In this document: in pieces, positions 9,802 to 63,088 of the stretch
How positions within the stretch are numbered: position 1 is the stretch's first letter
Layout: every line of letters starts with the position of its first letter
From: an uncultured Clostridia bacterium
GTDB taxonomy: Bacteria > Bacillota > Clostridia > TANB77 > CAG-465
NCBI GenBank assembly: GCA_934130325.1
Contig: CAKOYA010000001.1
Span: forward strand, 33,725 to 97,724
DNA length: 64,000 nucleotides
Direction: 5' to 3'
Position numbers and translations under genes: made by a program
The notes under the pieces: generated by a model
What the model was told of the DNA's origin: nothing
What the model saw: the letters and a program-made list of their open reading frames with translations, nothing else
The model's database searches: none

Positions 9802-10899
9802 TTATTTTTTAGGTAATTGCCTATTGCCTTTTTTCGGATCAATTTTTATTCTATCTTTTAAATTCTTTTCTTTTTTCTTCAAATCGTATGAATTTTGAAT
9901 TATACTTAAGTAATTCTCATTAGAGTTTCTTTCAGAATATTCATAAGCTCTCTTGCTTAACTCTCTATATGTTTCTTTATCTATATTAATTCTTTTTGCT
10001 TTTTCTCCTCCTGGTATAACTATTCCCATTCCATATTGTTTTACCTCTTGTGAAAAATCTATAACATCTGATATTATTACAGGTTTTCCACGAACTAATC
10101 CGTCTATTAATGAATTTGGCACATCTTTTACTACCCTTTTCTGTGGCACAAATGCAACAAAATCAGAATCATCAAATAATTGTGTTAAAATTTGAGTATT
10201 ATTATGTATTTCTAATAGTTTAACTCTATCATATACTCCCTTCTCTTTCGCGATTGCATTAAAATTTTTTGTATCATTATCTCTTAATGGAATAGTTAAT
10301 GTGTAATTAGGATTTTCTTTTAATAATTCTAGTAAATATTCTAATCCTCTTTCTTTTATTGCATCTCCCTCTTTATTATTCCAACTTGCAAATAATATAT
10401 TTACATTATCGCTACTATATTCTTTATTGCTTTTTTTTCTTTCTATTTTAGATGGTGTTGGAGTAACTTCAATCTTTTCTTCATCAATTCCACATTCAAT
10501 TAATAACTGTTTATGCTGTGGTAATTCAACAAAAACTTTTTTTAAATTTTTATATTTTTTTAAATGTTTCGCATACTGTTCAGTAGGTCTTCTATACATT
10601 GATACATATAACTGATTTCCTGCTTTATTAAATAAAACTCTTTTCCATAAACATGGTTCTTCTTCAAAAACATGAACTTTTTCTTTTTTTGCATTATATG
10701 TTTCTTTTATCGCTTGAAAAACATATTTTATTGGGGAATACACATAAATATTATCTTCTATATCTTATTTTTGCATAGCTTGTTGTCCCATAAATCTTGT
10801 TGCTGAAATAATCTTAGCATTATTAGCTTTTGAAATCAACTCCATTTGATTTGACACAGCCTCTTTATATCTTACAAAAAAATCATTAATTACTAACAT
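9802..10899 (-). pseudogene. glycosyltransferase-like (GT-B C-terminal domain) interrupted by an in-frame TAA at 10765-10767
   Basis: 44 codons from ATG 10899 (MLVINDFF...GQQAMQK) then TAA, then the same frame continues DIEDNIYV-YSPIKY... to 9802; C-terminal region FVPQKRVVKDVPNSLIDGLVRGKPVIISDV resembles the GT1 family. Confidence 0.5.
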
Positions 10900-11888
10900 A
10901 ATTCTATTTCTCCATCTATTATACTATATAATTTTTTTAAAATCATTTGTTTTTCTTCAAATTTATTTTCATATCTATTTACTATACTATAGCGATCTTC
11001 TCTCGGTTTTAAATCTATAAAACTTTTTTCAATTATGTTTTTATTCAATCCATATTTATCAGCTTTTTCAAAAATATTTAATTTTTTTATAGCTTTTACT
11101 ATTTCTGAAACATCTCTATTCTGCATTAATCCCATTGCTAATATTCCAATTGAAACAGACATTCCGTGTGGTACATTTATTATTCTTTCTATTTCCTTTG
11201 CCATTATATGTTCAGAGCCACTTTCTGGTCTTCCTGTTCCATACAAATTAGTTATATATCCTGCTATACCAATAAATTCAAATAATTTAATATTATTTTT
11301 TACTATATCCTCAAATTCATTATTGTTTACAAACTTAATAACATCTTGCAATAATTTTTCTGCCATATTATATATATTGTAATCAATTTTTTCATCTATA
11401 TCTTTTTGAGCAATTTTCCAATCATAAAGAGCTGTATATATTGAGAAAACATCAGCTAGTCCATATATATTTTCTTCTTTTGACAAATTTAACAATTCAT
11501 CATCAATTATTATTGTTTCAGGAATTTTTGCCTCCAAAGTTACTTTTTTGTTTTCTTTTATTAATGCAACTTTATTTGTTGCATATGAATTTGTTGATAA
11601 CATTGTTAGAATACAAGTAAATTTAACATTTAATTTATATGCTATATATTTTCCAATATCAATTGTACTTCCTCCACCATAACTAGTTACTGTTGTTATG
11701 TTTTTATTTTCTTTAATAAACTTTTCTATCTTATCAATGTTTTTGGTAAGATTATGCCAATTAACCATTAAACATTTATTATTATCTATATTATTTTTTT
11801 CAATAGATGTTGGCGAATATATGACTAACTCATTTGGTTTCAAATTTTCAATATATTTTTTACTATTATATTTTTGAATAACCTCCAT
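10893..11888 (-). CDS. iron-containing alcohol dehydrogenase family (glycerol / sn-glycerol-1-phosphate dehydrogenase-like)
   Basis: GGGSTIDIGKYIA nucleotide-binding motif, His-rich metal site HIMAKEIERIINVPHG; 331 aa. Confidence 0.6.
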   Translation of the reverse strand: MEVIQKYNSKKYIENLKPNELVIYSPTSIEKNNIDNNKCLMVNWHNLTKNIDKIEKFIKENKNITTVTSYGGGSTIDIGKYIAYKLNVKFTCILTMLSTNSYATNKVALIKENKKVTLEAKIPETIIIDDELLNLSKEENIYGLADVFSIYTALYDWKIAQKDIDEKIDYNIYNMAEKLLQDVIKFVNNNEFEDIVKNNIKLFEFIGIAGYITNLYGTGRPESGSEHIMAKEIERIINVPHGMSVSIGILAMGLMQNRDVSEIVKAIKKLNIFEKADKYGLNKNIIEKSFIDLKPREDRYSIVNRYENKFEEKQMILKKLYSIIDGEIELC

Positions 11889-16529: not shown

Positions 16530-17042
16530 TTAATTAAGTAAATATTTTTTTACTAGCGCCTTAGAAAGCGCCATTTGAGATTTTTTTGTAAACACAAATT
16601 TGTTTTTTATATCTCCTCCGGTTTCAAATTCCATACCAATCAAAATTTCAACGATTTTAGCATTTATCATTTTCATACCCATTGGATCTTCTGGGTACTG
16701 ATTTATGACCATGTACGGAGTTATATTAAAATCGTCATATATATGATGGTTGTCAATTTTACAAAACGCAAATCCTGCCATCACAATGTCCTCAAGAGTA
16801 TTGTTATAAGTAGGATCAATATCCTTTATGTCAAGCACATCAAATGCTATTCGTACCTGACACCTATTAAGTGAATAATGCGGATCATAGCATACCCTCA
16901 TTGTTCCTATTAATTCCCTTGATTCTTTGCTAAATATCTCCAAATAAACTACAGGTGGAACGTCCTTTGGACGATCGATACACTCTACTGATAAGTAGAT
17001 TTTTCCGAAGTGGTTTAACATTGCAATCCACTCTCCTTTCAA
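16530..17042 (-). CDS. hypothetical protein (170 aa), copy 1
   Basis: ORF; identical copy at 18391-18903. Confidence 0.5.
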   Translation of the reverse strand: MKGEWIAMLNHFGKIYLSVECIDRPKDVPPVVYLEIFSKESRELIGTMRVCYDPHYSLNRCQVRIAFDVLDIKDIDPTYNNTLEDIVMAGFAFCKIDNHHIYDDFNITPYMVINQYPEDPMGMKMINAKIVEILIGMEFETGGDIKNKFVFTKKSQMALSKALVKKYLLN

Positions 17043-17173
17043 AAATAATAATTATATTATATTACGGTAAACTATTTTTGTCAAGTATTTTTAAAAAGAT
17101 CACTAATATTACTGAATTTTTTATAAATAATAAATAGACACTAATTATATAATATAATTAATGTCTACTAATA

Positions 17174-18334
17174 TTATTGTTTATTTTGGGTAGTTGTATT
17201 AGTAATTGTAGAATCATTTCCAAGTGTAACTTCAATTTCTTGTTCCTTAGACGCTCTAACTATCTTTAATTTTATCTTATCACCGATTTTTTTAGTATTT
17301 TTATACTCATTTAATTTTTCCATAGTTTTTGATTCTTGACCATCAATGGCTATGATAATATCACCCTTTTGAATTCCTGCTACTGCTGCAGGTGAATTAG
17401 CATATATCTGTGCCACATAAACACCTTCTGTTAAATTATTTCTCTTAGCAGTAGTTTCATCAATATCAATTCCACCTATACCAATATATGGTCTTTCTAT
17501 CTTTCCTTTTGATATTAATTCGTCAATTACAGTCAGTGCATCATCTGTAGGAATCGCAAATCCTAAGCCTTCAACTTCTGTAGCTCCAATTTTTACTGTA
17601 TTTATTCCAATTACCTCACCTGAAGAATTAACTAATGCACCACCACTGTTTCCTGGATTTATAGCGGCATCTGTTTGTATTAACTTATATGTTCTTCCAT
17701 CAGTTGTAATCTTCCTATTTAAAGCTGATATATATCCAACTGTTACACTACCAGCAAACTCTTGACCTAATGGATTACCTATTGCTACAGCTAATTCTCC
17801 AACTTTTAAATCTGAGGATTTACCAATTTTTGCTGCCTTTAATCCTGTTTTATCTATCTTTATAACTGCTAGATCTGTAGTTTGATCCCCACCAACTATT
17901 GTTGCCTCTACTTCCTCATCCGAATTTGGGAAAGTAACAATAACTTTAGCAGTTGAATTGTTAATAGCAGACTCTATAACATGATAGTTTGTTATTATAT
18001 ACCCATCTTCCTTATATATTATGCCAGATCCTTCTTCATCAGATTCTGAAAGTGAGCCTAAGATATTTTGTGAAATATAATTTACTTTTACACCCACGAT
18101 TGATGGGCCTACATTTTCTGCTATTGCTACTACTGGATTTTCTACACTAGCAAATTCATATGATTTTGTTACTGACCCATCACTAGTTATCTGATTGGTA
18201 TTATTGGTTATTTTATTATCAATAGCAACATATGTAACTAAACTACCAAATACTCCTCCTATTAAAGCTATAATCAATATGACAACAACACTAGGTCCAG
18301 ATTTCTTTTCTTTAAACATAATTTTTTCATCCAT
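17174..18334 (-). CDS. htrA: HtrA/DegP-family serine protease with N-terminal TM anchor and C-terminal PDZ, copy 1
   Basis: catalytic H (ITNYHVIE), D (TDLAVIKID), S (GNSGGALVN); PDZ region GVYVAQIYANSPAAVAGIQKGDIIIAIDG. Confidence 0.9.
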   Translation of the reverse strand: MDEKIMFKEKKSGPSVVVILIIALIGGVFGSLVTYVAIDNKITNNTNQITSDGSVTKSYEFASVENPVVAIAENVGPSIVGVKVNYISQNILGSLSESDEEGSGIIYKEDGYIITNYHVIESAINNSTAKVIVTFPNSDEEVEATIVGGDQTTDLAVIKIDKTGLKAAKIGKSSDLKVGELAVAIGNPLGQEFAGSVTVGYISALNRKITTDGRTYKLIQTDAAINPGNSGGALVNSSGEVIGINTVKIGATEVEGLGFAIPTDDALTVIDELISKGKIERPYIGIGGIDIDETTAKRNNLTEGVYVAQIYANSPAAVAGIQKGDIIIAIDGQESKTMEKLNEYKNTKKIGDKIKLKIVRASKEQEIEVTLGNDSTITNTTTQNKQ

Positions 18335-18390
18335 AAAATTATCCCCTCCTACATATCCAGTTCAACTATGAACTGGATATGTTCTGTTAC

Positions 18391-18903
18391 TTAATTAAGT
18401 AAATATTTTTTTACTAGCGCCTTAGAAAGCGCCATTTGAGATTTTTTTGTAAACACAAATTTGTTTTTTATATCTCCTCCGGTTTCAAATTCCATACCAA
18501 TCAAAATTTCAACGATTTTAGCATTTATCATTTTCATACCCATTGGATCTTCTGGGTACTGATTTATGACCATGTACGGAGTTATATTAAAATCGTCATA
18601 TATATGATGGTTGTCAATTTTACAAAACGCAAATCCTGCCATCACAATGTCCTCAAGAGTATTGTTATAAGTAGGATCAATATCCTTTATGTCAAGCACA
18701 TCAAATGCTATTCGTACCTGACACCTATTAAGTGAATAATGCGGATCATAGCATACCCTCATTGTTCCTATTAATTCCCTTGATTCTTTGCTAAATATCT
18801 CCAAATAAACTACAGGTGGAACGTCCTTTGGACGATCGATACACTCTACTGATAAGTAGATTTTTCCGAAGTGGTTTAACATTGCAATCCACTCTCCTTT
18901 CAA
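18391..18903 (-). CDS. hypothetical protein (170 aa), copy 2
   Basis: identical to 16530-17042. Confidence 0.5.
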   Translation of the reverse strand: MKGEWIAMLNHFGKIYLSVECIDRPKDVPPVVYLEIFSKESRELIGTMRVCYDPHYSLNRCQVRIAFDVLDIKDIDPTYNNTLEDIVMAGFAFCKIDNHHIYDDFNITPYMVINQYPEDPMGMKMINAKIVEILIGMEFETGGDIKNKFVFTKKSQMALSKALVKKYLLN

Positions 18904-19034
18904 AAATAATAATTATATTATATTACGGTAAACTATTTTTGTCAAGTATTTTTAAAAAGATCACTAATATTACTGAATTTTTTATAAATAATAAATAGAC
19001 ACTAATTATATAATATAATTAATGTCTACTAATA

Positions 19035-20195
19035 TTATTGTTTATTTTGGGTAGTTGTATTAGTAATTGTAGAATCATTTCCAAGTGTAACTTCAATTTC
19101 TTGTTCCTTAGACGCTCTAACTATCTTTAATTTTATCTTATCACCGATTTTTTTAGTATTTTTATACTCATTTAATTTTTCCATAGTTTTTGATTCTTGA
19201 CCATCAATGGCTATGATAATATCACCCTTTTGAATTCCTGCTACTGCTGCAGGTGAATTAGCATATATCTGTGCCACATAAACACCTTCTGTTAAATTAT
19301 TTCTCTTAGCAGTAGTTTCATCAATATCAATTCCACCTATACCAATATATGGTCTTTCTATCTTTCCTTTTGATATTAATTCGTCAATTACAGTCAGTGC
19401 ATCATCTGTAGGAATCGCAAATCCTAAGCCTTCAACTTCTGTAGCTCCAATTTTTACTGTATTTATTCCAATTACCTCACCTGAAGAATTAACTAATGCA
19501 CCACCACTGTTTCCTGGATTTATAGCGGCATCTGTTTGTATTAACTTATATGTTCTTCCATCAGTTGTAATCTTCCTATTTAAAGCTGATATATATCCAA
19601 CTGTTACACTACCAGCAAACTCTTGACCTAATGGATTACCTATTGCTACAGCTAATTCTCCAACTTTTAAATCTGAGGATTTACCAATTTTTGCTGCCTT
19701 TAATCCTGTTTTATCTATCTTTATAACTGCTAGATCTGTAGTTTGATCCCCACCAACTATTGTTGCCTCTACTTCCTCATCCGAATTTGGGAAAGTAACA
19801 ATAACTTTAGCAGTTGAATTGTTAATAGCAGACTCTATAACATGATAGTTTGTTATTATATACCCATCTTCCTTATATATTATGCCAGATCCTTCTTCAT
19901 CAGATTCTGAAAGTGAGCCTAAGATATTTTGTGAAATATAATTTACTTTTACACCCACGATTGATGGGCCTACATTTTCTGCTATTGCTACTACTGGATT
20001 TTCTACACTAGCAAATTCATATGATTTTGTTACTGACCCATCACTAGTTATCTGATTGGTATTATTGGTTATTTTATTATCAATAGCAACATATGTAACT
20101 AAACTACCAAATACTCCTCCTATTAAAGCTATAATTAATATGACAACAACACTAGGTACAGACTTCTTTTCTTTAAACATAATTTTTTCATCCAT
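19035..20195 (-). CDS. htrA: HtrA/DegP-family serine protease, copy 2 (G12V relative to copy 1)
   Basis: identical to copy 1 except KKSVPS vs KKSGPS. Confidence 0.9.
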   Translation of the reverse strand: MDEKIMFKEKKSVPSVVVILIIALIGGVFGSLVTYVAIDNKITNNTNQITSDGSVTKSYEFASVENPVVAIAENVGPSIVGVKVNYISQNILGSLSESDEEGSGIIYKEDGYIITNYHVIESAINNSTAKVIVTFPNSDEEVEATIVGGDQTTDLAVIKIDKTGLKAAKIGKSSDLKVGELAVAIGNPLGQEFAGSVTVGYISALNRKITTDGRTYKLIQTDAAINPGNSGGALVNSSGEVIGINTVKIGATEVEGLGFAIPTDDALTVIDELISKGKIERPYIGIGGIDIDETTAKRNNLTEGVYVAQIYANSPAAVAGIQKGDIIIAIDGQESKTMEKLNEYKNTKKIGDKIKLKIVRASKEQEIEVTLGNDSTITNTTTQNKQ

Positions 20196-25404: not shown

Positions 25405-27093
25405 TTATTTTTTAAAAAATCCTCTTGATCTAGAACTTCCTTGTGACCTTGTGCTACTAGTTCTACTAGAAACAGGATAAATCGAATTAATAATGTTCTC
25501 AAGATTAAATTTAAAATCATCCGTAAATGTTGCAAATTTATTAGAGTACTTATATACCATTTCTACATATTTTCTATAGTTATCTATATCAAAAGGTAAA
25601 ATATAATATGAAATATTTGATGAGTTAAACAATTCATCATACATTTTTAGATCATAACTAGTATATGTAGCAATTCCATCTAATATATCTCTAGCAGTAA
25701 GAACACACTTTACGTGTTTATTAATAATTACCCTAAGCTTATTCATAGGAATTCCTTTAGATTTTAAACTTCTTAAAAACATTGTAAGTTGATTTATATT
25801 TAATATATCCATATCCTGTACAATATATATCTCTTGACACAATCTAAAGTAATCAACTGGCGTCGTAAAATCTGCATCTATTAAAATTACATTATTATTT
25901 TGAGATATAGTCTCTAAGGCTACACTAGCATTATATAATTTTCTATCTTCTCCTGGCATACCAGTATAAATGCTTAATCTGTCATATATTAATGGTTCAT
26001 TTAAACCGTTTGATGCATATTTTAAGCTCTCAGCTGCTATATGCCTTTTTCCTTCATTATCATATGTATAGATTGTATAAGTATCTCTTTTTCTAGTCAT
26101 ATCTACAATAGCTGTTTTAACCTTATTTCTAGCTAAATATGTACCTATAGCATTAATACAAAAAGTAGTTCCTACCTTAGGTGCTCCTACAAAACACACA
26201 GTTTTTTTATAATCTTTAGGAACCTCATAAACATTCCTTACTACCTCTTTTTCAACTACTTGAGTTACAACTTCTTTTTGAGGTACTTTTTGAACAACTA
26301 TTTTTTCAACTATTTCTGGTTCTTTTTTTATTTGAACACTATTAGAATTCTGATTATTATTCAATATCTCTCTAGGTTTATATTCTGCGGCTTGTGGTTC
26401 AATAACCCTAACACTAACATTATCTGGTAATGAATTTATTGCTTTAAATTTTTCACTATTTAAAGCTAAAAATTGTTTTACATCTGCAGGTAAAAAATTA
26501 CATATAACTTTTAATTGTTCATTCGTATATTGAGTAGATATTCTATCAAATATTTCATTATATTTATCAGTATTACCATTCTGATTTTTATAATATGAAA
26601 TTATTCTTTGAATTTCAATTTCTGAAACTTCAGCTGATTTATATACATTCTCTCCTACTACATTTTCATAATACTTTTTTACGTCCTTTTTTAATAATGG
26701 CTTATGTATAGCCTCACAAACTTTTCCTTTCGTTCTATCTTGACCAGTTAAAACTGTATACATTCCCAAATTAAATAGCTTTGATAAAAACTCATCACCA
26801 TGTTTTCTTCTATCAGATGCAATGTATACTATACTTTTTGAATCAAACACATCCGTCATATTATCAATATTCTTAAAAAGATAATCATCTATTTGAGCAT
26901 AATTAGTAGTTGGAAATTTTTCTAATTCTTCTAATAAAACTGCTCTATCATATCCACCAATTGCAAGCTCATGTATAAATTGTTTAAAATAATAAACATT
27001 TTTATATTCAATTTTCTCATTATATTTTTCATTATAAAATTTAACAATACCTTTTACAGTATCATCATTATTTATACCAAAAAGTACCTTCAT
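25405..27093 (-). CDS. hypothetical 562-aa protein: receiver-like N-terminal region + degenerate MinD/ParA-like P-loop
   Basis: KKTVCFVGAPKVGTTFCINAIGTYLARNKVKTAIVDMT deviant Walker-A-like segment; function unknown. Confidence 0.35.
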   Translation of the reverse strand: MKVLFGINNDDTVKGIVKFYNEKYNEKIEYKNVYYFKQFIHELAIGGYDRAVLLEELEKFPTTNYAQIDDYLFKNIDNMTDVFDSKSIVYIASDRRKHGDEFLSKLFNLGMYTVLTGQDRTKGKVCEAIHKPLLKKDVKKYYENVVGENVYKSAEVSEIEIQRIISYYKNQNGNTDKYNEIFDRISTQYTNEQLKVICNFLPADVKQFLALNSEKFKAINSLPDNVSVRVIEPQAAEYKPREILNNNQNSNSVQIKKEPEIVEKIVVQKVPQKEVVTQVVEKEVVRNVYEVPKDYKKTVCFVGAPKVGTTFCINAIGTYLARNKVKTAIVDMTRKRDTYTIYTYDNEGKRHIAAESLKYASNGLNEPLIYDRLSIYTGMPGEDRKLYNASVALETISQNNNVILIDADFTTPVDYFRLCQEIYIVQDMDILNINQLTMFLRSLKSKGIPMNKLRVIINKHVKCVLTARDILDGIATYTSYDLKMYDELFNSSNISYYILPFDIDNYRKYVEMVYKYSNKFATFTDDFKFNLENIINSIYPVSSRTSSTRSQGSSRSRGFFKK

Positions 27094-33787: not shown

Positions 33788-35614
33788 TTAATTACTAATT
33801 GCTTTAAATGGGCATTTTGTAATACATACCCCACATTTTATACATTTTTCTTGGTTTATAACAAAAGGGGTTATTCTTAATTCACCATCTATTGCACCTA
33901 CCGGGCAATTTTTTGCACATATTCCACATTTTTTACACTTTTGTGCTTCTATGTGCATATGCGTCAATGACTTGCACTCTCCTGCAGGACATTTCTTATC
34001 TTTTATATGTGCCTCATATTCTTCTCTAAAATATTTTAACGTACTAAGTACTGGATTAGGTGCTGTTTGACCAAGACCACAAAGAGATGACTTTTTTATA
34101 TTTTCAGCTAAATGCTCAAGTTTTTCAATATCCTCAATTTTTCCCCTTCCCTCCGTAATCCTAGTAAGTATTTCTAACATCCTTTTAGTACCAATTCTAC
34201 ATGGAGGACATTTTCCACACGATTCGTCTACTGTAAATTCTAAGAAAAATTTTGCTAAATTCACCATACACTTGCTTTCATCCATTATAATGAGTCCACC
34301 AGATCCCATCATAGAACCAATATTATTTAAAGTTTCATAGTCAATTTTAATATCCAAATATTTTTCTGGAATACATCCTCCACTGGGACCACCAGTTTGA
34401 GCAGCTTTAAATCTTTTTCCACCTGGTATACCACCGCCTATATCATACACAATTTCTCTTAGAGTTGTACCCATTGGAACTTCTACTAGCCCAACATTAT
34501 TAATACTTCCACCTAAAGCAAATACTTTTGTTCCCTTAGAGTTATCTGTACCTATATCATTATACCATTTTGAACCATTTAATATTATTCTTGGGATATT
34601 AGCATATGTTTATACATTATTTAAAAGTGTAGGTCTACCAAACAATCCTTTCACTGCAGGGAAAGGTGGTCTTGGCCTAGGTTCACCTCTTTTACCTTCT
34701 ATAGAATTCATTAATGCTGTTTCTTCACCACAAACAAAAGCTCCTGCCCCTAATCTTAGTTCTAAATCAAAATCTAAGCCTTTATCCAATATATTTTTTC
34801 CAAGTAGTCCTAATTTTTTAGCTTGAAGTATTGCTATTTTTAATCTTTTTACTGCTATTGGATATTCTGCACGTACATAAATATATCCTTGGTTTGCCCC
34901 AACTGCATATCCTGCAATTATCATAGCTTCAATTACAGAATGCGGATCACCTTCTAAAATACTTCTATCCATAAACGCACCTGGATCACCTTCATCTGCA
35001 TTACAACATACATATTTTATGTCTGAAACAGCATTCTTAGTAAATTCCCACTTGCGTCCAGTTGGGAATCCTGCTCCGCCTCTTCCTCTTAATCCAGATT
35101 GCCTAATTTGTTCTATTACATCATCTCTTGACATATTAAGCGCTTTATATAACGCTTGATAACCATCAACAGCTATATATTCTTGAATTTTTTCCGGGTT
35201 AATTTTCCCACAATTTCTTAAAGCAATACGTTTTTGTTTCTTATAAAAATTTAATTCTTTCCACTTTTTTATTAATTTTTCATTTTCATTTGCAAGTAAT
35301 CTTTCAATAATTTTATTTTCTAAAACTGAATTAATAATTTCTTCTGCATCTGTAGGTTTTACCATTTCATAAAATATTTCATCTGGATCTATTACTACAA
35401 TAGGTCCTTTTGCACAAAAGCCAAAGCACCCTGATTTTTCAACATAAATGTTTTTTATATTTTTAGAATAAATTATATCTTTTAAAACTTCAAACAATTC
35501 ATTACTCTTGGAAGAAGTACATCCTGTTCCACAGCAAACTAAAATCCTTTTTTGTTTTAATACATTGATATACCTTTTCTTAATATTTTCTAACTTTAAT
35601 ATATCCATACACAC
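33788..35614 (-). pseudogene. hydB: NuoF-like flavoprotein subunit HydB of bifurcating hydrogenase, interrupted by an in-frame TAA (34610-34612) at the conserved NNVET glutamate
   Basis: ORF1 ends ...GLFGRPTLLNNV, then TAA, then the same frame reads [54 protein letters not shown]...; expected GAA became TAA. Confidence 0.8.
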
Positions 35615-36119: not shown

Positions 36120-37133
36120 TTAATTAATCTTTTTCTTTTTTAACCTTATATCTTCACCTATAAATTTGCAAATTGTAAAATTTCCTATTAGTCTAGATAT
36201 CACCCTTTCATCATATTGTTTATATAGCTCATTAAGAGTTAGATTAGTAGATATAAGTATTTTTTTATTTTTCAAAAGTCTAGTATTAATTATATTAAAC
36301 AGCTCTGTAAATTTATTATTACTCATTGTTTCAGTTCCAAGATCATCTATAATAAGTAAATCTACATCAAATATTCTATTGTACTGTTCTTTTTGTTCAC
36401 CAGTTTTATCATATGAAAACTTATACTCAATTACCTTATCCATTAATACAGGAGCTGTTTGATATACCACAGTTTTACCACTTTCAATAACATCTTTAGC
36501 AATGCAATTTGCTAAGAACGTTTTTCCAAGACCAGTATTACCAGTAAATAACAGATTTTTTTGTTCTATATCATCTATATTTTTAACAAATTCAATTGAA
36601 ATATCTTTAATACATTTTATATTTTCTAGTGGAGATTTGTCAATTCCATATTTCTCCTTATTACTTTTATTAGAATAAAAGCCTATATCAAAAGTTTCAA
36701 AGTTTTCCTCATCTAATTTATTAATATTTGCTTGTTTATATGTTTCATTTATCAATTTCTGTTTAAAACATTTACATACCTTTAAGATATCTCCATCTTT
36801 TTCCATACCAGTATCATTACATATTTGACAATCAAACTTAGGTTCTAAATCAGATTTATTTAATCCCATTTTTCCTAATTCATTTTCATATTTTTTTTCC
36901 AGTTTTTCAATATTTAATTTCATATTCTCTTCTTCAATATCACGAGATACAGAGTCAGAATTTAAAATTTTCCTTGTTATCTTCAAAGCTTGAATGTTTA
37001 TATTTTGTTCCAATTCTGATAATTTAGGATTTTTAGAATATATTTCTTCTTTCCTTCTTTTTGCTTCATCAATCTTTATATTCCTCTTTATATCATACTC
37101 CCTCTTTATCTTTCTAAATACTTCATTATTCAA
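36120..37133 (-). CDS. dnaI: primosomal helicase-loader DnaI/DnaC-like ATPase
   Basis: LLFTGNTGLGKTFLANCIAKDV Walker A, DDLGTE Walker B, N-terminal Zn-ribbon CQICNDTG. Confidence 0.75.
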   Translation of the reverse strand: MNNEVFRKIKREYDIKRNIKIDEAKRRKEEIYSKNPKLSELEQNINIQALKITRKILNSDSVSRDIEEENMKLNIEKLEKKYENELGKMGLNKSDLEPKFDCQICNDTGMEKDGDILKVCKCFKQKLINETYKQANINKLDEENFETFDIGFYSNKSNKEKYGIDKSPLENIKCIKDISIEFVKNIDDIEQKNLLFTGNTGLGKTFLANCIAKDVIESGKTVVYQTAPVLMDKVIEYKFSYDKTGEQKEQYNRIFDVDLLIIDDLGTETMSNNKFTELFNIINTRLLKNKKILISTNLTLNELYKQYDERVISRLIGNFTICKFIGEDIRLKKKKIN

Positions 37134-37157
37134 GTATATTCACCCACTTTATAATTT

Positions 37158-38180
37158 TTACATATTATCATAAAAAGATTCTAAATCTAGGTAATCTCTT
37201 TGTTCATAATTTTGATATTTATTTTTATTATCAACGCTACGTTTAGTATAGTTCCTGGTCTTTACTGACTGCATCTCATTTTCAGATTCTTCAACATCTT
37301 TTACATCTTTAAATCCTTTTTTATGCCAATTACTCAATATTCCATTCACATAATTTAATGTAGGATTAGGTTTATTTACTGTCCTTTTTAATGCTTCTTC
37401 TATCATTGGAAAATCATAATTAAAATCTTTTATCCAAATATCAATATACTGCTCTTCATACTTTGTAAAATTACGATTAATCCTTAAACTCTTTGCAATT
37501 TTTTGCTTTATTTTTTGTACATTATCATAATTTTCTAAAAAGTCCTCTAGTTCTTCAAAAGTTTTTACGCCACCTTTATACCATGTTTCAGCTACTGCAT
37601 GAACATATTTTTTATTCAAAGCTTTCCTTTCTTGACAATAATGAAAAAGTGCTATCATTACTTCTTCCGAAAAAGAATAATTTTCAAACATTGAACCAAT
37701 ATCTGTATACCAACTAAGCGACATTACCCCTTGGAAAAAACTTTCATTTATAGCGGATGCTGCTGCTATTCTTTTACGTTCCTTTTCTGTTTGAGCCTTA
37801 TTTCTTCTTGGTTCAACCTTTGGAATATATGATTTATTTATTTCCATGTCTTTTAAATCAACTATATTATATCCAGCAGTAGTTCTTGTTATTAAATCTT
37901 CTCCTTGCAATCTTTCTATAGCAAATCCAATTTCCTGTTCAGTAACATTTAATTTTTTTGCAATATCTGCTTTATCTGCTTCTTTACCAATCTTTGATAA
38001 GAAAATCATATATATATATAATTTTAAATCAATCCCCTCAAGTGATGACATATTATTTAGTATAAACAAATCTGGTATCAAAGTATCGCCCAATTCCATC
38101 TTATTTTTCTGCACAAATTTCATATTTTTTTCTCCTAATAAATATATACGTATTATATCATTAGTTTCTTTTTTTGACAA
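37158..38180 (-). CDS. DnaD-domain replication initiation/membrane attachment protein (DnaB_2/DnaD)
   Basis: two DnaD-like repeats (...ETWYKGGVKTFEE..., ...ILSNWHKKGFKDV). Confidence 0.65.
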   Translation of the reverse strand: MSKKETNDIIRIYLLGEKNMKFVQKNKMELGDTLIPDLFILNNMSSLEGIDLKLYIYMIFLSKIGKEADKADIAKKLNVTEQEIGFAIERLQGEDLITRTTAGYNIVDLKDMEINKSYIPKVEPRRNKAQTEKERKRIAAASAINESFFQGVMSLSWYTDIGSMFENYSFSEEVMIALFHYCQERKALNKKYVHAVAETWYKGGVKTFEELEDFLENYDNVQKIKQKIAKSLRINRNFTKYEEQYIDIWIKDFNYDFPMIEEALKRTVNKPNPTLNYVNGILSNWHKKGFKDVKDVEESENEMQSVKTRNYTKRSVDNKNKYQNYEQRDYLDLESFYDNM

Positions 38181-38357
38181 TAAAATACTTTTAAAATTAC
38201 TAACAAAATCCGAGTATATATTAATTAGTTAGTTTTACAAAAATTATAACAAACTTATTTATAAATTAATACTGTTTTTTATTTTCATTTTAACAAAAAT
38301 ATTTTTCCATACAATAAATATAACAACTAGCATTATTTGTATAATGCTAGTTGTATA

Positions 38358-38702
38358 CTAACTATAAAATTTAATTTTTTTATTGAATCTTACATTCTCT
38401 AAGTTTACAAAACATTTTTTGTTTAGCATAAATTTAATAACGTTTAATAACATTTCTACCGTGCTATCATTGTTAATATTTATAGTAAATACTGCCAAAA
38501 TAGGGATAACAAAGAATAAAAATGTGCACAATTTTATATACATATTAAAGGGAGTTATTTTTACAAAGTTTAAAATAATCATTGCATATACAACTATTAC
38601 TATTAATGATTTATAGTCTATAATTCCTAAGAATTTAGCATTTCTTTTATAGTTTGAATATATTGGCTGTTCATTTACATTTTTAATATCTATTCTTTTC
38701 AC
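38358..38702 (-). CDS. small membrane protein (114 aa), last gene of VirD4-like operon
   Basis: start overlaps upstream stop; two TM helices. Confidence 0.45.
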   Translation of the reverse strand: MKRIDIKNVNEQPIYSNYKRNAKFLGIIDYKSLIVIVVYAMIILNFVKITPFNMYIKLCTFLFFVIPILAVFTININNDSTVEMLLNVIKFMLNKKCFVNLENVRFNKKIKFYS

Positions 38703-39517
38703 GCCTTTCTTTGAAGTACAACCTGAGAAATAATCTCTTTTACAAAATTATTTATTCTTAATAGTAAATATATACTTCCTAACAAAATAATTCTATAAAT
38801 AGTATCATTGCTTTTATATGCCAAAGGAATCATTATTATTAATCTTACAAAAATTTCAATAATTAAGTTAATAAATAACATCTTTCCCCACGTTTTTGAA
38901 ATCCCTCTTGTTATATTACTAAATAAACACATTACTGTAAGTGGGGAAATTATAATTAAAAAAATTATTGTAACATACCTTATAGAAAATACTATCATTA
39001 ATGAAATTGATGAAAAATTAGTTACACTTTTAATGATGCTTTCTATAGTAAATCCATCAGTTTTTACAATTTCTTCTAAATTTGTAACCTCTTTTTGTAA
39101 ATTTTCAAAGCTTGCATCATTACTAATTATATCTTTTGAAAATTCTGAAATAGTTTTATTAAAAAGCTCACTCATATTTAAAATTTCTTCACAAAGATAA
39201 TAACTATTATTTACAAGCAAAATTATAACAATAAGTTTTAATATGAAATGGCCAATATTTTCTTTCGTGCCGCCATTATACATACTAACAATTCTTAAAA
39301 ATATGTAATGGCATGCATAAAATAATATTAACGAGTTAGCTATTATAATTATTCCACTTTTACTTACATCAAGCATATCTTTTAGAGGTTGCTCTTTAAT
39401 AATATTTGAACTAATAACTAATATTTTGTCCAGTAATTTAAAAAAATCTTGTCCAAAATTTAAATTTAACTTTTCTATAGCTCCATTTAATGTATTTAAC
39501 ACATTTGTTGTTTCCAT
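38699..39517 (-). CDS. polytopic membrane protein (272 aa, VirB6/TrbL-like topology?)
   Basis: 5-6 hydrophobic helices; overlaps neighbours; no motif recognised. Confidence 0.4.
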   Translation of the reverse strand: METTNVLNTLNGAIEKLNLNFGQDFFKLLDKILVISSNIIKEQPLKDMLDVSKSGIIIIANSLILFYACHYIFLRIVSMYNGGTKENIGHFILKLIVIILLVNNSYYLCEEILNMSELFNKTISEFSKDIISNDASFENLQKEVTNLEEIVKTDGFTIESIIKSVTNFSSISLMIVFSIRYVTIIFLIIISPLTVMCLFSNITRGISKTWGKMLFINLIIEIFVRLIIMIPLAYKSNDTIYRIILLGSIYLLLRINNFVKEIISQVVLQRKA

Positions 39518-39870
39518 ATTATATAATTGAATCTACAAATTTTAAAATCATATCTATTGAAATAATTATCGCATATCCGTAGAATTGCATTTATAATTAT
39601 CTTTTTTCCTATAACCATTTTTTCTTCATTTCCCATACTAAATTTTCTTATAAGGACTCCACTTGCAATAGCAACACCAGCTGCTGGCAATGAAATTTTT
39701 ACAAGGTACCCCTGTATCTTTTTTAATGCCGAATTTACTTTAGTTACTAATGTAGGATCTGTTGCACCAAAACAACATGATAAACTAATCATAAATATTG
39801 CAACTGCAATAAGTATTATATTAAACTTTTTTAATTTTATATTTTTAACTATTTTCTCTATAATTTTCAT
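39496..39870 (-). CDS. small secreted/membrane protein (124 aa, signal peptide + C-proximal TM; pilin/VirB2-like topology?)
   Basis: IILIAVAIFMISLSCCFGA signal-like N-terminus, second hydrophobic helix AAGVAIASGVLI. Confidence 0.4.
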   Translation of the reverse strand: MKIIEKIVKNIKLKKFNIILIAVAIFMISLSCCFGATDPTLVTKVNSALKKIQGYLVKISLPAAGVAIASGVLIRKFSMGNEEKMVIGKKIIINAILRICDNYFNRYDFKICRFNYIIWKQQMC

Positions 39871-41701
39871 CCCACCTTTTTAATTTTACTTTTTCTATAA
39901 ACTTCATTTTATTTCCATCTGAAATAATCATAGCACTCTCAAAAGTGTCAAGATTCTGAGTAAAATATTTTTCATTTAGTATATACTCTTGCCTTTGTGA
40001 AAATGATATGCTTTTTGAAAGTCCAGATTTATAATTTTTAAAATTATTTATAAGAAAATTATATTTACTATTTTGAGAACTTTCAGAGTAATTAACAGTT
40101 TCATATTTTTTAATTTCTTTTCCTATTTGTTTAATAATTTCACCTACTGTATATGTATCATCATTTCTAAACCATATTTTATTTACCAAATTTTGTATTA
40201 TTACCCTTGATGTGCTATCATTCTTTAGTGTATTATTCAGTGAACTATAACTTTGCATACTAATAACATTTATACATTGATATTCTCTAGATAGTGAAAA
40301 AAATCTAGCGTCCTTTTCATTAGCAATTTCTTGATACTCATCACATATGAAAAATGTAGGGGAAATTTTTGATGAATATGATAAAATCTGGGATTCAAAT
40401 TCGAGTTTCATATAAGTAGAAATTATTTTTGCAAGTTCCATATTTTGACCTATATCCATTGATAGAACATAAACATTATTACTTTTGAAATCTATTGTTT
40501 GACTAGATGTACAAAATTTTTGATATATTTTCATATCACTTACAAATACTCCAGTTATTCTAGTAATTTCAGATCTTATTATTCCCCTTGTACGTTCGTC
40601 AAGTTTCAAGAATTCATTTTTTATATTTGATATGGCAGAATTAACATTAAATAACTTTTCGTCTGAATATTCGTATGATAAAATTTTTTGTTTAACCAAA
40701 TTTAATTTTTCACACAAATATTCTTTACTTATAACTAACATATGTAACTCATAAAAATTAGGATTAGTTGTATATATATTCATCAATGTTAAAAAATCTC
40801 TTATATAACTTTCTGCCTTATCCAACCAATATGAATCAGTATTATTATTATTACCAGATATAACAAGTAATATGTTTTTTAGTCTGCTTGCCATCTCAAA
40901 ATTTGAAACATTCGATTTTAAAGGGTTATAACTATACTTGCTGTCTAACGAAATTTCTATAATTCTTTCTTTTTGTTTTTTATTATTTAACATCTTATAT
41001 ATAGTGTTTATATAATTGCCTTTTACATCAATTAATAATCCTCCAATATTCATATTAAATAATTGTAAAAATATATTAGAAATAGCGCTACTTGTTTTAC
41101 CGCTTCCTATACTTCCAGTTATAAGAATATTTTGAAAAAGTCCATATTTATTTATCACTATATTTTTATTACAATCATTATAAAAAGTTATATATGGAAT
41201 TTCTTTTATTTTTTCTTTTGTATTTAATTTGTTAAAAGTGATTTTTTTATAAATATTATAATAAAAATTATATACCAAATCATATATAGCAATTGAATAA
41301 AGAAATATATATATTAATTTTATTTTTGAAATATTCTCTCCAAATAAAGAAACTATATCAATATTTTTATTTAAAATATTGATATATAAAAAATTAGAAG
41401 CAAAAAAGCTATAATGAATACAAGTTTTTAATAATATAAACGTAAAAGAAATTAAATTTATAATAAAAAATCTTTTAATAATTTCAACATCAGGTGGTTT
41501 TATATATTGAAAAAAATTTTTTATAGAATTTTTTTTAATTGCATTAACAAAGCTGCAGACTATATTTTGCTGATTTTCACTTATCATATATTTTTTCAAT
41601 TTACCTCCATTTATAGAAAAAATATATTTTTTATCAACTAGATAATATAGCCTAAAGATAAAATAAATTAATAAGATAAAAAATTCAATAATATGAAACA
41701 A
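39845..41701 (-). CDS. membrane-anchored P-loop ATPase, VirD4/TraG (type IV coupling protein)-like
   Basis: three N-terminal TM helices, Walker A ILITGSIGSGKTSS at ~aa 195, Walker-B-like FFICDEYQE, arginine-finger-like INVISMQSYSSL; 618 aa. Confidence 0.5.
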   Translation of the reverse strand: MFHIIEFFILLIYFIFRLYYLVDKKYIFSINGGKLKKYMISENQQNIVCSFVNAIKKNSIKNFFQYIKPPDVEIIKRFFIINLISFTFILLKTCIHYSFFASNFLYINILNKNIDIVSLFGENISKIKLIYIFLYSIAIYDLVYNFYYNIYKKITFNKLNTKEKIKEIPYITFYNDCNKNIVINKYGLFQNILITGSIGSGKTSSAISNIFLQLFNMNIGGLLIDVKGNYINTIYKMLNNKKQKERIIEISLDSKYSYNPLKSNVSNFEMASRLKNILLVISGNNNNTDSYWLDKAESYIRDFLTLMNIYTTNPNFYELHMLVISKEYLCEKLNLVKQKILSYEYSDEKLFNVNSAISNIKNEFLKLDERTRGIIRSEITRITGVFVSDMKIYQKFCTSSQTIDFKSNNVYVLSMDIGQNMELAKIISTYMKLEFESQILSYSSKISPTFFICDEYQEIANEKDARFFSLSREYQCINVISMQSYSSLNNTLKNDSTSRVIIQNLVNKIWFRNDDTYTVGEIIKQIGKEIKKYETVNYSESSQNSKYNFLINNFKNYKSGLSKSISFSQRQEYILNEKYFTQNLDTFESAMIISDGNKMKFIEKVKLKRWDENYRENS

Positions 41702-42455
41702 AATTTACCACCTAAAACAATTTTATCAGTTTTTCTATTTATAATCAAATTTTTTTACAAGTTTATACATTATTTGATAAAACTAGTTAAAATTTGACAT
41801 AAAATATACTATTTTTATATAGTATATAAATAAAACTTTAATAAAAAAATTGAATTTGTTAAATTAACCTCTACTTTCAAGTAATAAAGAAAATACTTAA
41901 ACAGCATACCTATTTTTATTCTTGCAATTAAATTTCTATCAGATAAATTTGTAGTAATTTTTATTTCTACTATGAAAAAATAAATAAATTATATAATTTT
42001 TTGAAAAAAATAGTATAGATGGTAACGAGCAAGTTAAATAAGTTAATTTATCAAGTAAATTGACACCATTTGTAAATCAATATATTAATAAAAATAAAGG
42101 TTCAAATAATGGTACTTGTAGTGTAGTTGAAAATTATTCATATAATTGATGTGAATAATTAAGTTGCTTTTAAAGTTTATTATAGACGTGTTGATGGGAA
42201 TATAGAGACAAGTATGGGTTCTGAAATATATACTTATAATATAAAAACGGATACAATACGTAATTAGGTAGTATAAATTAAAAACTAAAATAAAATAATT
42301 TGTATTATAAAAAAGTCTACCGAAAAATGAGTGAATTTTTTCATGAGTATGTAGAAAAATTTGTGTAAACTAAGAATAGTAAAAATTACCTTTCCATGAT
42401 AACCATAGGGAGGATTTTTTATAAAAATAAATCATAGTTAGCAACAGAATATAAA

Positions 42456-42500
42456 ATAAAATCCTTGAAACTGCTATTTTTAAGCACTTTTCAAGGATTC
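42456..42500 (-). terminator. terminator hairpin (atccttgaaa ... tttcaaggat) downstream of tRNA cluster
   Basis: 10-bp stem, T-run on minus strand. Confidence 0.55.
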
Positions 42501-42505
42501 TTAAT

Positions 42506-42581
42506 TGGAGCTGGAAGTCAGATTTGAACTGACGACCTGCGGTTTACAAGACCGCTGCTCTACCAACTGAGCTATTCCAGC
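42506..42581 (-). tRNA. tRNA-Thr (anticodon UGU)
   Basis: rc gives GCTGGAATAGCTCAGTTGGTAGAGC...ggtCTTGTAAaccg...GGTTCAAATCT...CCA; cloverleaf motifs present. Confidence 0.85.
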
Positions 42582-42590
42582 AGAACATCA

Positions 42591-42667
42591 TGGTGACCCG
42601 TAGGAGAGTCGAACTCCTCACTCCGCCGTGAAAGGGCGATGTCTTAACCGATTGACCAACGGGCCGC
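42591..42667 (-). tRNA. tRNA-Glu (anticodon UUC)
   Basis: rc GCGGCCCGTTGGTCAATCGGTTAAGAC...ccCTTTCACgg...GGTTCGACTCTCCTACGGGTCACCA. Confidence 0.8.
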
Positions 42668-42670
42668 TTG

Positions 42671-42746
42671 TGGTGAGCCATCGCAGATTCGAACTGCGGA
42701 CAACTTGATTAAAAGTCAAGTGCTCTGCCAACTGAGCTAATGGCCC
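42671..42746 (-). tRNA. tRNA-Lys (anticodon UUU)
   Basis: rc GGGCCATTAGCTCAGTTGGCAGAGC...gaCTTTTAAtc...GGTTCGAATCTGCGATGGCTCACCA. Confidence 0.85.
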
Positions 42747-44549: not shown

Positions 44550-45371
44550 TTATATTATTTTATGTGTTCTAAATCTTTCCTTATAGCATATATAATATCT
44601 TTTCTTTTTACCATACGAGCTAGAATATACTATTTTACACAATATTTCATCTTTTTTATTGTAAAAAAAGTCATTTACCATATAGAAAATATTATCTACA
44701 TATTTTGAATATCCAAACTCAAATGGAATATTTTCTCCAAAATTGAAACTATTTATTCTCATCCTTAAATCAAAATAATTAATATTAAATTCAAAAACCT
44801 CGTTGCTACATATCACGTCTTTTTTTAATATAACTGGCTTATCGATTGAATCTTCTACGATTACGTTTAAATTATAAAGTTGATTACTTCCAGAGTTAAC
44901 TAACTTAAAAGTCCAATTAGAATTAGTAATATAAGTGTCATAGATTTTAATAAAGTACATAAAATTATAATCGTCTTTAAAGTAATTTATCATATCTGAA
45001 ATTTCTTTTTCCTCGTTTGATTGATTTATACATTTACTTAAATATGTTTTTTTACTATAGTTAATATACGTCTTATGTAATAAAGATTTTATATAGTATG
45101 AAATATTATACGACTGTAATTGTAAATATTTTTTAAATTCCTTTTCTAATTCAATATTCTTTTTATATTTTCCAAAAATAACGCTATTACCTATATTTTT
45201 ATTTAATTTATTATACATAAATAAAATTTTTCCTCTTTTTGCTTTCTCACTAAGATATACTGTAATAACTGCTGTAATTAATGTTGTAATTAGTGGCAAT
45301 ATAATACTTGAAATAATATATTGAAAATCCATTTTTCCCCCAATCATAAAAATAAATTGTCGATATAACAC
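44550..45371 (-). CDS. hypothetical membrane-anchored protein (273 aa)
   Basis: ORF only; N-terminal TM helix IISSIILPLITTLITAVITVYL. Confidence 0.4.
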   Translation of the reverse strand: MLYRQFIFMIGGKMDFQYIISSIILPLITTLITAVITVYLSEKAKRGKILFMYNKLNKNIGNSVIFGKYKKNIELEKEFKKYLQLQSYNISYYIKSLLHKTYINYSKKTYLSKCINQSNEEKEISDMINYFKDDYNFMYFIKIYDTYITNSNWTFKLVNSGSNQLYNLNVIVEDSIDKPVILKKDVICSNEVFEFNINYFDLRMRINSFNFGENIPFEFGYSKYVDNIFYMVNDFFYNKKDEILCKIVYSSSYGKKKRYYICYKERFRTHKII

Positions 45372-48610: not shown

Positions 48611-48842
48611 AGACCTCCTTAAATTAGAATTAGAATTAAAATATAATAGAATTAAAATATTAAATACATAAAAATTATATTCTGGAATTTCTATTATGTC
48701 AAGTTTTTTTCATCGCAATATTCGACAATAATTAAAAAATAATATAATTTTTAATTAAGCTATCATCTCTATTTCAGCCTTAAAAAACAGATTTTATATA
48801 CTAAAAAACAGGTAAATAAATATATTTACCTGCAAAATTAAA

Positions 48843-53176: not shown

Positions 53177-53292
53177 ACCAAAAACCTCCTTAAAAATTTT
53201 TAAGTTTTTATTATTTTTATAAAGTGTACATATTATATCATCATTTATTTTTTATGTCAATACATTTTATAATTTTTTGTATTATTTTGTCG

Positions 53293-53491
53293 AATTAATC
53301 GTTACTATTCAGACTATAGTCAATTGAAAGCGCAAAATTAATATCTATTAGCACTATAATATACATAATAAATTCAATTTTGTGGTTTTTATAAATTAGC
53401 AATATTTGCTTTAAAGTGACTTATACCAATATTTTAACACGATTATTTTAATCTTTGACTTTTACCTAGTCTGAATAGTAACAATTAATCT
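53293..53491. repeat. ~23-bp terminal inverted repeats (aattaatcgttactattcagacta / tagtctgaatagtaacaattaat) flanking ~150 bp; MITE-like
   Basis: read directly; one mismatch. Confidence 0.55.
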
Positions 53492-62856: not shown

Positions 62857-63088
62857 ACTATCCTCCTTGTTACCCAACCAACGCAAGACTATTATATATA
62901 AATTTTTTAAAAAAATCAAGCTTATTTGTCACTTTTTTAGGACGAGTTTTGTCGAATAAATCAATAAATCTTATTTTTTTATTATTCCTAATTTTACCAG
63001 TATTTTTTCGACAAATAAACACAAATTAATAGTATAAATGTAATAGTTAAATATTCATTTATAATTCTTATTTTAGGAGGTGAATTAA

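Follow-up and report, generated by a model that had tools for sequence, protein, structure and literature searches.

A predicted VirD4–VirB2–VirB6–VirB3 operon without a linked VirB4, conserved beside dnaD-dnaI in uncultured gut Clostridia

A four-gene operon on the minus strand of an uncultured Clostridia bacterium encodes homologs of VirD4, VirB2, VirB6 and VirB3, in that order, with no gene for VirB4 nearby. It lies in a stretch of 64,000 nucleotides (contig CAKOYA010000001.1, positions 33,725 to 97,724), which as a whole is called the window here and from whose first letter positions are counted; the genes are named g1 to g4 in the direction of transcription. With moderate confidence, we read this module as derived from the operon of a Firmicute conjugative type IV secretion system (T4SS), since domesticated, passed on vertically and kept as a VirB4-less membrane translocon, probably for DNA. 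A literature search found no paper describing the four-gene module, and in public records the ATPase is named only generically while the other three proteins carry neither a Pfam domain nor a name.

The four proteins and their type IV secretion relatives

The module comprises the following features:

39845..41701, minus strand: g1, VirD4/TrwB-family coupling-type ATPase, 618 aa (Pfam, invariant motifs, AF2 model, Foldseek)
39496..39870, minus strand: g2, VirB2/T4SS-pilin homolog with signal peptide and hydrophobic helices, 124 aa as an open reading frame (Pfam in orthologs, hhalign, HMM)
39577..39582, minus strand: frameshift site in g2, CUA-CGG, with an extra C at 39579 (ortholog comparison)
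38699..39517, minus strand: g3, VirB6-fold polytopic membrane protein with about five transmembrane (TM) helices, presumed channel/platform subunit, 272 aa
38358..38702, minus strand: g4, PrgI/VirB3-type protein, 114 aa (Pfam across the family, HMM)
38323..38354, minus strand: intrinsic terminator with a 14-bp stem and T-run, closing the four-gene operon

The terminator 3' of g4 makes the four genes a transcription unit of their own. A first-pass annotation, made from the letters alone, had already picked out these four open reading frames (ORFs), taking them for a VirD4/TraG-like ATPase and three small membrane proteins; their positions and membrane character hold, but the annotation missed the T4SS identity of the small proteins (VirB2, VirB6 and VirB3/PrgI), listing VirB6 and VirB2 only as profiles to be checked.

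The ATPase scored 46.5 bits against the Pfam family TrwB_AAD_bind (cut-off 20.5) and 32 bits against TraG-D_C (cut-off 22), and more than 100 of its relatives carry the same precomputed Pfam domains. It is built of an N-terminal TM helix (TM1) with a GxKLxKY motif, further TM helices, and an NTPase domain with an all-alpha insert. The Walker A (TGSIGSGKT) and Walker B (FFICDEYQE) sequences, together with further NTPase motifs, are invariant in sets of 21 and 55 sequences. In an AF2 model (pLDDT 82), where helices 267-397 form the all-alpha insert region, the best folds retrieved by Foldseek were TrwB (E 1.6e-12, target TM-score about 0.70) and Cag-beta (5e-12), with HerA (8e-9) and VirB4 (1.4e-8) some four orders of magnitude behind TrwB. 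Profile and predicted fold thus agree in pointing to a VirD4/TraG/TrwB-type coupling protein, as the first-pass annotation had proposed. As regards functional coupling, a further mark of a type IV coupling protein (T4CP), the window and more than 45 related flanks hold neither a relaxase nor a VirB4. An NCBIfam scan gave only a far-sub-threshold TraD match, and PDB sequence searches with profiles of all four proteins returned nothing relevant.

The most likely start of g1 is the TTG at 41701, behind the ribosome-binding site (RBS) AGGTGG, because the N-terminal extension that it adds (TM helix and GxKLxKY) is conserved as protein sequence in 55 relatives, all of which share G32 and K34; because of this conservation a 580-aa product starting at the ATG at 41587 was rejected. 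An apparent fusion of the T4CP to g2 in locus L013 proved to be an artefact of ORF extension. Near the C-terminus of the model, residues 528-573 (window ~40120-39983) form a long two-stranded beta-ribbon with strands of about 20 residues each (pLDDT 66-78), which coincides with a conserved SE..SKY..KS.LS.S.S region. In the two most divergent lineages (L113-L125 and L130; for example L118 7727-8320 and L130 ~1340-1516) the first TM helix and a GSKLK motif are encoded on their own, in a mini-ORF some 50 codons long that stops at a TAA, and the main ATPase ORF comes after it with its own RBS, AAGGAGG. In L118 and L125 this main ORF has no canonical start codon and possibly begins at ATT or ATA. 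An alternative genetic code in the third-tier lineage (see below) was considered and rejected, the in-frame TAA being what parts the mini-ORF from a main ORF with its own RBS.

All 20 of the g2 orthologs scanned matched Pfam T4SS_pilin (best E 1e-7), and 11 of the 20 also matched TrbC/VirB2. Aligned by hhalign with the pilin of a complete conjugative operon, g2 gave a probability of 96% (E 4e-9), and its HMM matches the pilins of the loci L130, L131, L132 and L050. It is the most conserved small protein of the module, with 66-72% identity even to a sister lineage. The orthologs fit the VirB2/T4SS_pilin layout of a signal peptide and two hydrophobic helices around a charged loop; the window copy lacks the last helix unless it is read in the +1 frame. 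Relative to 19 of 19 orthologs, all of which continue in that frame into a second hydrophobic helix and a stop just before g3, the window gene has one extra C at 39579. Its 0 frame runs into an unrelated tail of 27 residues, and its +1 frame encodes GYAIIISIDMILKFVDSII followed by a stop, which is the conserved last helix. An ortholog-like reading that skips C39579 ends at the TAA at 39521-39519, giving 116 aa and leaving 1 nt before the ATG of g3. The first-pass annotation had described overlapping stops and starts along the operon; such overlaps are present between the ORFs, but the 124-aa length and the overlap of g2 with g3 stem from this single inserted nucleotide.

The same insertion occurs in five other contigs of the species, one of them with 6 SNPs; the +1 frameshift is fixed in the window's species. 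The site reads CUA-CGG-A, and among the 11,691 codons of 28 long ORFs of the window CGG does not occur at all otherwise. The frameshift may represent a mutation, inactivating or modifying, that has become fixed; alternatively, +1 recoding may take place here at an unassigned, 'hungry' CGG codon.

The third protein is a VirB6-fold channel protein. The window copy of g3 scored 14.8 bits against Pfam TrbL, below the cut-off of 25.9, so its VirB6 membership rests on fold and on profile matches to proteins in the VirB6 position; among its orthologs 9 of 22 gave weak TrbL matches (best E 1e-4) and one matched TrbL_4 at 3e-8. In L130 g3 is split into ORFs of 139 and 101 aa. The fourth protein has a conserved N-terminal motif, NYKRxNKWLGIIDYK, followed by a hairpin of two TM helices. 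Within its family, 35 of 58 members match Pfam PrgI and seven match VirB3, with no other family matched by more than four, and its HMM recovers the small protein directly upstream of VirB4 in L132 (E 6e-15) and L131 (E 8e-14); hhalign found no match to the 81-aa protein of L050, for which reason L131 and L132 served better for comparison. By these profile matches g4 is a PrgI/VirB3-type protein. Unlike the usual VirB3/PrgI, which is adjacent or fused to VirB4, it has no such partner: a terminator and then dnaD come after it.

Conservation, origin and the missing VirB4

In 21 genomes of uncultured gut Clostridia, each representing a GTDB species and with an ATPase 40-58% identical, the four genes stand in the same order, and dnaD (DnaB_2)-dnaI come next in 20 of the 21, that is, wherever the contig reaches. 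The six-gene block recurs in a sister lineage, whose DnaD is 50% and whose ATPase is 42-45% identical, with otherwise different genes around it. Scanning metagenomes with the g3 profile added 37 loci, in which the module is followed by dnaD in 22 of the 22 with enough flank; among them is a third tier whose DnaD is only 38% identical and whose GC content is 23-26%. A fourth lineage (L130, 22.7% GC) carries the ATPase, the pilin, a split g3, g4, DnaB_2 and DnaI. In total the module lies directly upstream of dnaD-dnaI in more than 45 loci of at least four lineages, and in every related locus with enough flank. The first-pass annotation had suggested looking at conservation of genomic context across Clostridia, and had named conserved core genes of known function as grounds for refutation; of this only the first half holds, the four genes being core to these lineages.

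When the least-diverged species are compared in pairs, dN/dS ranges from 0.05 to 0.5 in the four genes and from 0.02 to 0.15 in dnaD and dnaI, and dS of the four genes is similar to that of dnaD/dnaI, as expected under co-inheritance. These values show that all four genes are under purifying selection. They also bear on whether the module is a non-functional, decaying remnant of an old conjugative element, one of three options in the first-pass annotation. Such a remnant would agree with the incompleteness of the system, with the g2 frameshift and degenerate operator of the window copy, and with occasional lesions or decayed copies in other genomes. However, intact ORFs of about 600 aa persist at 23-30% GC in lineages whose DnaD is only 38-50% identical, catalytic motifs and promoter are conserved, and the selection data largely refute decay; we regard it as very improbable. 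Kept intact and VirB4-less in several lineages, the four genes have probably been repurposed for a membrane-transport job.

The likely source of the module emerged from an exhaustive HMMER search with the ATPase profile, in which scores form a continuum and contexts were sampled down the score ladder. At 397 bits, L131 encodes, after the ATPase, first a pilin and a VirB6-like protein of 341 aa, next an M23 peptidase and a protein of 104 aa, and then the N-terminus of a VirB4. At 322 bits, L132 is a full conjugative element with relaxase, MobC, pilin, M23 peptidase and VirB6-like protein, in which a 106-aa protein lies directly upstream of an 861-aa VirB4-type ATPase. The operon order is the same in L050 (Symbiobacteriaceae). 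These three represent the ancestral operon type, in which M23 hydrolase, VirB4 and relaxase accompany homologs of all four genes, and profile HMMs of g2, g3 and g4 match the corresponding proteins of the complete clusters at E 1e-8 to 1e-16. The module thus shares with these Firmicute conjugative systems (order T4CP, T4SS_pilin, VirB6-like, M23/C39 hydrolase, VirB3-like, VirB4; ATPase 308-397 bits) four homologous proteins in the same order. It differs in having no hydrolase, VirB4, relaxase or anything downstream, and in being chromosomal, at a single fixed site and vertically inherited.

Searches by tblastn with two VirB4 homologs gave no match in the window or in the 21+37 related loci (the relatives with 10 kb on either side), and neither the window nor the more than 45 related flanks yielded a VirB4, a hydrolase or a relaxase. 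The first-pass annotation had noted the lack of these genes and of VirB8 nearby and concluded that this is not a complete conjugation system, and both statements are borne out. By a VirB4-based definition the module would fall outside the T4SS, and its sole ATPase is nearer in fold to the VirD4 type than to VirB4 (Foldseek).

The four genes could instead be half of a complete, probably relaxase-less T4SS whose VirB4, VirB8-like protein and hydrolase are encoded elsewhere on the chromosome. VirB3 and VirB2 homologs do normally need VirB4, the inspected DNA amounts to 64 kb of the window's genome and 10 kb on either side of the relatives, and T4SS genes or the T4CP gene are dispersed in, for example, Rickettsia and many Patescibacteria (PMC12102498). 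But the same four genes are always present, in at least four lineages, and none of the more than 45 flanks holds a VirB4. Moreover, the nearest complete systems have their g4 homolog directly upstream of VirB4, at the very junction that is occupied here by a terminator and dnaD. A T4SS split in this manner therefore seems unlikely to us.

Promoter and chromosomal setting

Around the module lie the following features:

41708..41799, minus strand: conserved promoter/operator (alignment of 16 upstream regions)
41800..42450, no strand: AT-rich spacer that forms the variable junction of module and tRNA cluster
42506..42746, minus strand: tRNA-Lys(UUU), tRNA-Glu(UUC), tRNA-Thr(UGU) cluster, with its own terminator at ~42499-42451
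36120..38180, minus strand: dnaD-like gene with two DnaB_2 domains (38180 or 38123 to 37158) and dnaI helicase-loader gene (37133-36120) (Pfam)

The tract at 41702-42455, which the first-pass annotation had singled out as gene-free, indeed has no ORF of 50 aa or more, and its GC content falls to 16%. Its promoter-proximal ~130 bp are the conserved promoter/operator, and its distal ~650 bp (~16-20% GC, no ORF) form a junction that differs from genome to genome. Whether run at gathering or at relaxed thresholds, Rfam found only the tRNAs and nothing in the tract, and blastn and tblastx of the tract against the related loci and the window gave only low-complexity noise.

Alignment of the 16 upstream regions revealed a sigma-A-type promoter, TTGACA-N17-TGnTAAAAT, just 5' of the RBS. 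Some 45-50 nt upstream of its -35 element stands TGTCGAA, always in the orientation of the operon, followed by conserved AGTTTTRT and TTGTWGAA blocks. A perfect TGTCGAA occurs at -87 to -109 in 12 of the 22 main-clade loci, for which shuffling expects 0.66 (maximum 5 in 2000 trials), and at the same position in all three loci of the sister lineage. TGTCGAA is the core Spo0A box, and in C. difficile spo0A has a consensus box at -75 and sigH one at -78 (PMC3485338). The window promoter consists of a 0A-like box, TGTCAAA (41799-41793), the AGTTTTAT block, a -35 element TTGATT (41748-41743), an extended -10 element TGATAAAAT (41728-41720) and the RBS (41713-41708). Only four perfect TGTCGAA sequences occur in the window, all intergenic: 62950-62956 (plus strand), 63007-63013 (minus), 48721-48727 (minus) and 53288-53294 (plus). 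Two of them lie 31 and 88 nt upstream of spo0A (62919) and serve as an internal control; one lies 111 nt upstream of a sortase/SpaA-thioester pilin operon (48610-45909) and one upstream of a 102-aa ORF (53176). No LexA/Cheo box was found upstream of the module in any locus. From the candidate box we infer that Spo0A may control the operon.

The place of the module beside a tRNA-Thr gene and a variable AT-rich junction might be taken for that of an integrative or other mobile element, of an inovirus Zot-like phage module, or of an anti-phage defence system, and two matches lean the same way: a marginal one to Pfam Zot (20.4 bits, cut-off 20.3) and a weak one to PADLOC mads_8 (E 2.6e-5). Both matches are confined to the P-loop, and no relatives of the module were found in IMG/VR or phage genomes, and the idea of a Zot/inovirus origin was rejected; in plasmids only remote T4CPs were found (22-27% identical). 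The defence reading, an option of the first-pass annotation, was dropped, since PADLOC gave nothing more and the synteny is fixed rather than island-like. That annotation had also correctly placed the tRNA-Thr/Glu/Lys cluster and suggested searching it for the boundaries of an integrative element. No att-like repeat of the tRNA-Thr 3' end or the tRNA-Lys 5' end occurs in the window, other repeats in 36-44 kb are AT-rich chance matches, and there is no integrase or relaxase. In all relatives the module keeps the same chromosomal position, tRNA cluster included, and the cluster is itself a conserved upstream neighbour. We give next to no credence to a mobile, phage or defence element here.

In the relatives the tRNA cluster lies 330-400 bp from the module and is mostly divergent from it, in some being co-oriented with other inserts between. 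Across L004-L023, L086, L088 and L090 its orientation flips, with the window, L088 and L090 co-oriented and most others divergent, and the spacer varies from ~280 bp to 2 kb with unrelated small ORFs; together these mark the spot as a recurrent point of rearrangement or insertion.

The window as a whole has about 26% GC, with nearly all genes on the minus strand, and its content is that of an ordinary chromosome: by Pfam, FtsH, the replicative DnaB helicase, GdpP, Spo0A, a sortase with SpaA/thioester pilin, and NuoE/F-hydrogenase genes. At 16530-20195 (minus strand) the ORF list shows an apparent tandem duplication of ~1.86 kb, in which a 170-aa and a 386-aa ORF (16530-17042 and 17174-18334) recur with identical lengths at 18391-18903 and 19035-20195. 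At 33788-35614 (minus strand) a NuoF/HydB-like flavoprotein appears as two ORFs, of 334 and 228 aa, with a gap of ~135 nt; the closest relative, L004, has the same two-part pattern with a similar gap at 17869-19683, so that this may be a conserved split or recoding rather than an error. Two further minus-strand ORFs have no Pfam family, one of 562 aa (25405-27093) at E <= 0.001 and one of 273 aa (44550-45371) at E <= 0.1.

Possible function and comparison with other exapted systems

T4CPs are membrane-anchored hexameric translocases, and VirB6 is an inner-membrane platform. On this background the four proteins would assemble into a cytoplasmic-membrane translocon: g3 would be its channel, g2 and g4 would serve as accessory hairpins, and the hexameric VirD4-type ATPase would be its only motor. 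VirB3 normally tethers VirB4 (PMC12102498); here g4 would instead dock g1 to g3 and g2. In lineages that keep TGTCGAA, Spo0A~P might switch expression at entry into stationary phase or sporulation. DNA would be the likeliest substrate, given that coupling proteins translocate DNA and that the fixed neighbours serve in primosome loading, and the direction could be either import, as in Ced/ComB, or export. Among the three options of the first-pass annotation, it is thus the minimal secretion or DNA-uptake-like device that the evidence favours.

A translocon of the same build could also move protein, peptide or another non-DNA substrate, for example with a part in Spo0A-controlled sporulation or signalling between cells. 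In effector-translocating T4SS the substrates that T4CPs recruit include proteins, the operon has no relaxase or DNA-processing gene, and its Spo0A-box promoter has a parallel in the window's sortase/SpaA pilin operon, which also has a 0A box. On the other side, no conserved candidate effector gene is linked to the module, and its only invariant neighbours are DNA-replication loader genes. This alternative strikes us as rather doubtful.

Several points weigh against a VirB4-less DNA translocon descended from a conjugative operon. VirB3 and VirB2 normally depend on VirB4, and to our knowledge there is no precedent for a machine that lacks it; VirB4 counts as the one T4SS protein that is ubiquitous (PMC4027160). 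It is possible, if improbable, that VirB4 is encoded in trans, elsewhere in the genome. The module contains no VirB8-like or other cell-wall-spanning part, which leaves passage through the wall without an explanation, and the operon comes without a substrate, a relaxase or a DNA-processing gene. Some copies are damaged: the ATPase of L008 (~10013-11719) has an internal stop, g4 of L010 (4645-4812) is truncated, g3 of L108 is interrupted by foreign DNA, and L128 is a decayed remnant, a Walker-A fragment and a truncated g3 beside metabolic genes. The third and fourth lineages keep the core promoter without a 0A box. The window's own box, TGTCAAA, carries a G5A change, which lowered affinity about 10-fold (PMC3485338), and given this degenerate box and the g2 frameshift the module may be impaired in the window's species. 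Finally, the adjacency to dnaD-dnaI could be historical rather than functional, as a terminator parts the two units in the window.

The closest parallel in composition is the archaeal Ced/Ted system, made up of CedA (VirB6-like), CedA1 (a VirB2-like pilin), CedA2 (a 2-TM protein) and the ATPase CedB (PMC9905601). Like it, the module is a four-gene chromosomal T4SS derivative, apparently domesticated, with one ATPase, one polytopic VirB6-like protein, two small 2-TM proteins of which one is a VirB2-like pilin, and no relaxase. The Ced ATPase, however, is of the VirB4/HerA type and that of the module of the VirD4 type, and beyond the T4SS superfamily the sequences of the two systems are unrelated. 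DNA damage induces Ced, whereas the module has a Spo0A box and no LexA box; DNA import has been shown for Ced and would be one possible direction in the module. By analogy of parts, then, we consider it a compositional analogue of Ced/Ted and not a member. More speculatively, it might be a bacterial counterpart of Ced, a VirB4-independent system of DNA import or exchange, switched by Spo0A, in which a VirD4-type ATPase alone powers a VirB6/VirB2/VirB3 translocon and DnaD-DnaI process the transported ssDNA; we hold this to be improbable as it stands.

The relaxase-less T4SS of Patescibacteria (PMC12102498) resemble the module in being monoderm-type, chromosomal, vertically inherited in small-genome bacteria and presumed exapted, and in having VirB2, VirB3/PrgI and VirB6 homologs. 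They are centred on and defined by VirB4, their T4CP being usually unlinked and dispensable, whereas in the module the T4CP is the sole ATPase and no VirB4 lies in cis. MOBless exaptations have likewise been identified through VirB4 (PMC3548315). The ComB system of Helicobacter pylori, likewise relaxase-less, is a T4SS exapted to transport DNA, in this case for uptake. ComB keeps VirB4 (ComB4) and a periplasmic core, lacks VirD4 and is a diderm system, so that its ATPase complement is the opposite of the module's. The module is T4SS-derived, with an ATPase complement not seen before.

If no VirB4 exists in trans, the module would show that a T4SS-derived translocon can work without it, and its four proteins would make a compact system in which to study the roles of VirB3 and VirB2 in the absence of VirB4. 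Detection and classification of T4SS are anchored on VirB4, described as their only ubiquitous protein; if our reading is true, current searches of this kind miss a class of exapted systems. Tight linkage to dnaD-dnaI, along with conservation of the Spo0A box, points to a possible tie among DNA transport, replication restart and the stationary-phase switch. Should the module indeed be a counterpart of Ced, it would represent an unrecognised route of gene transfer in uncultured gut Clostridia, invisible to VirB4-anchored detection.

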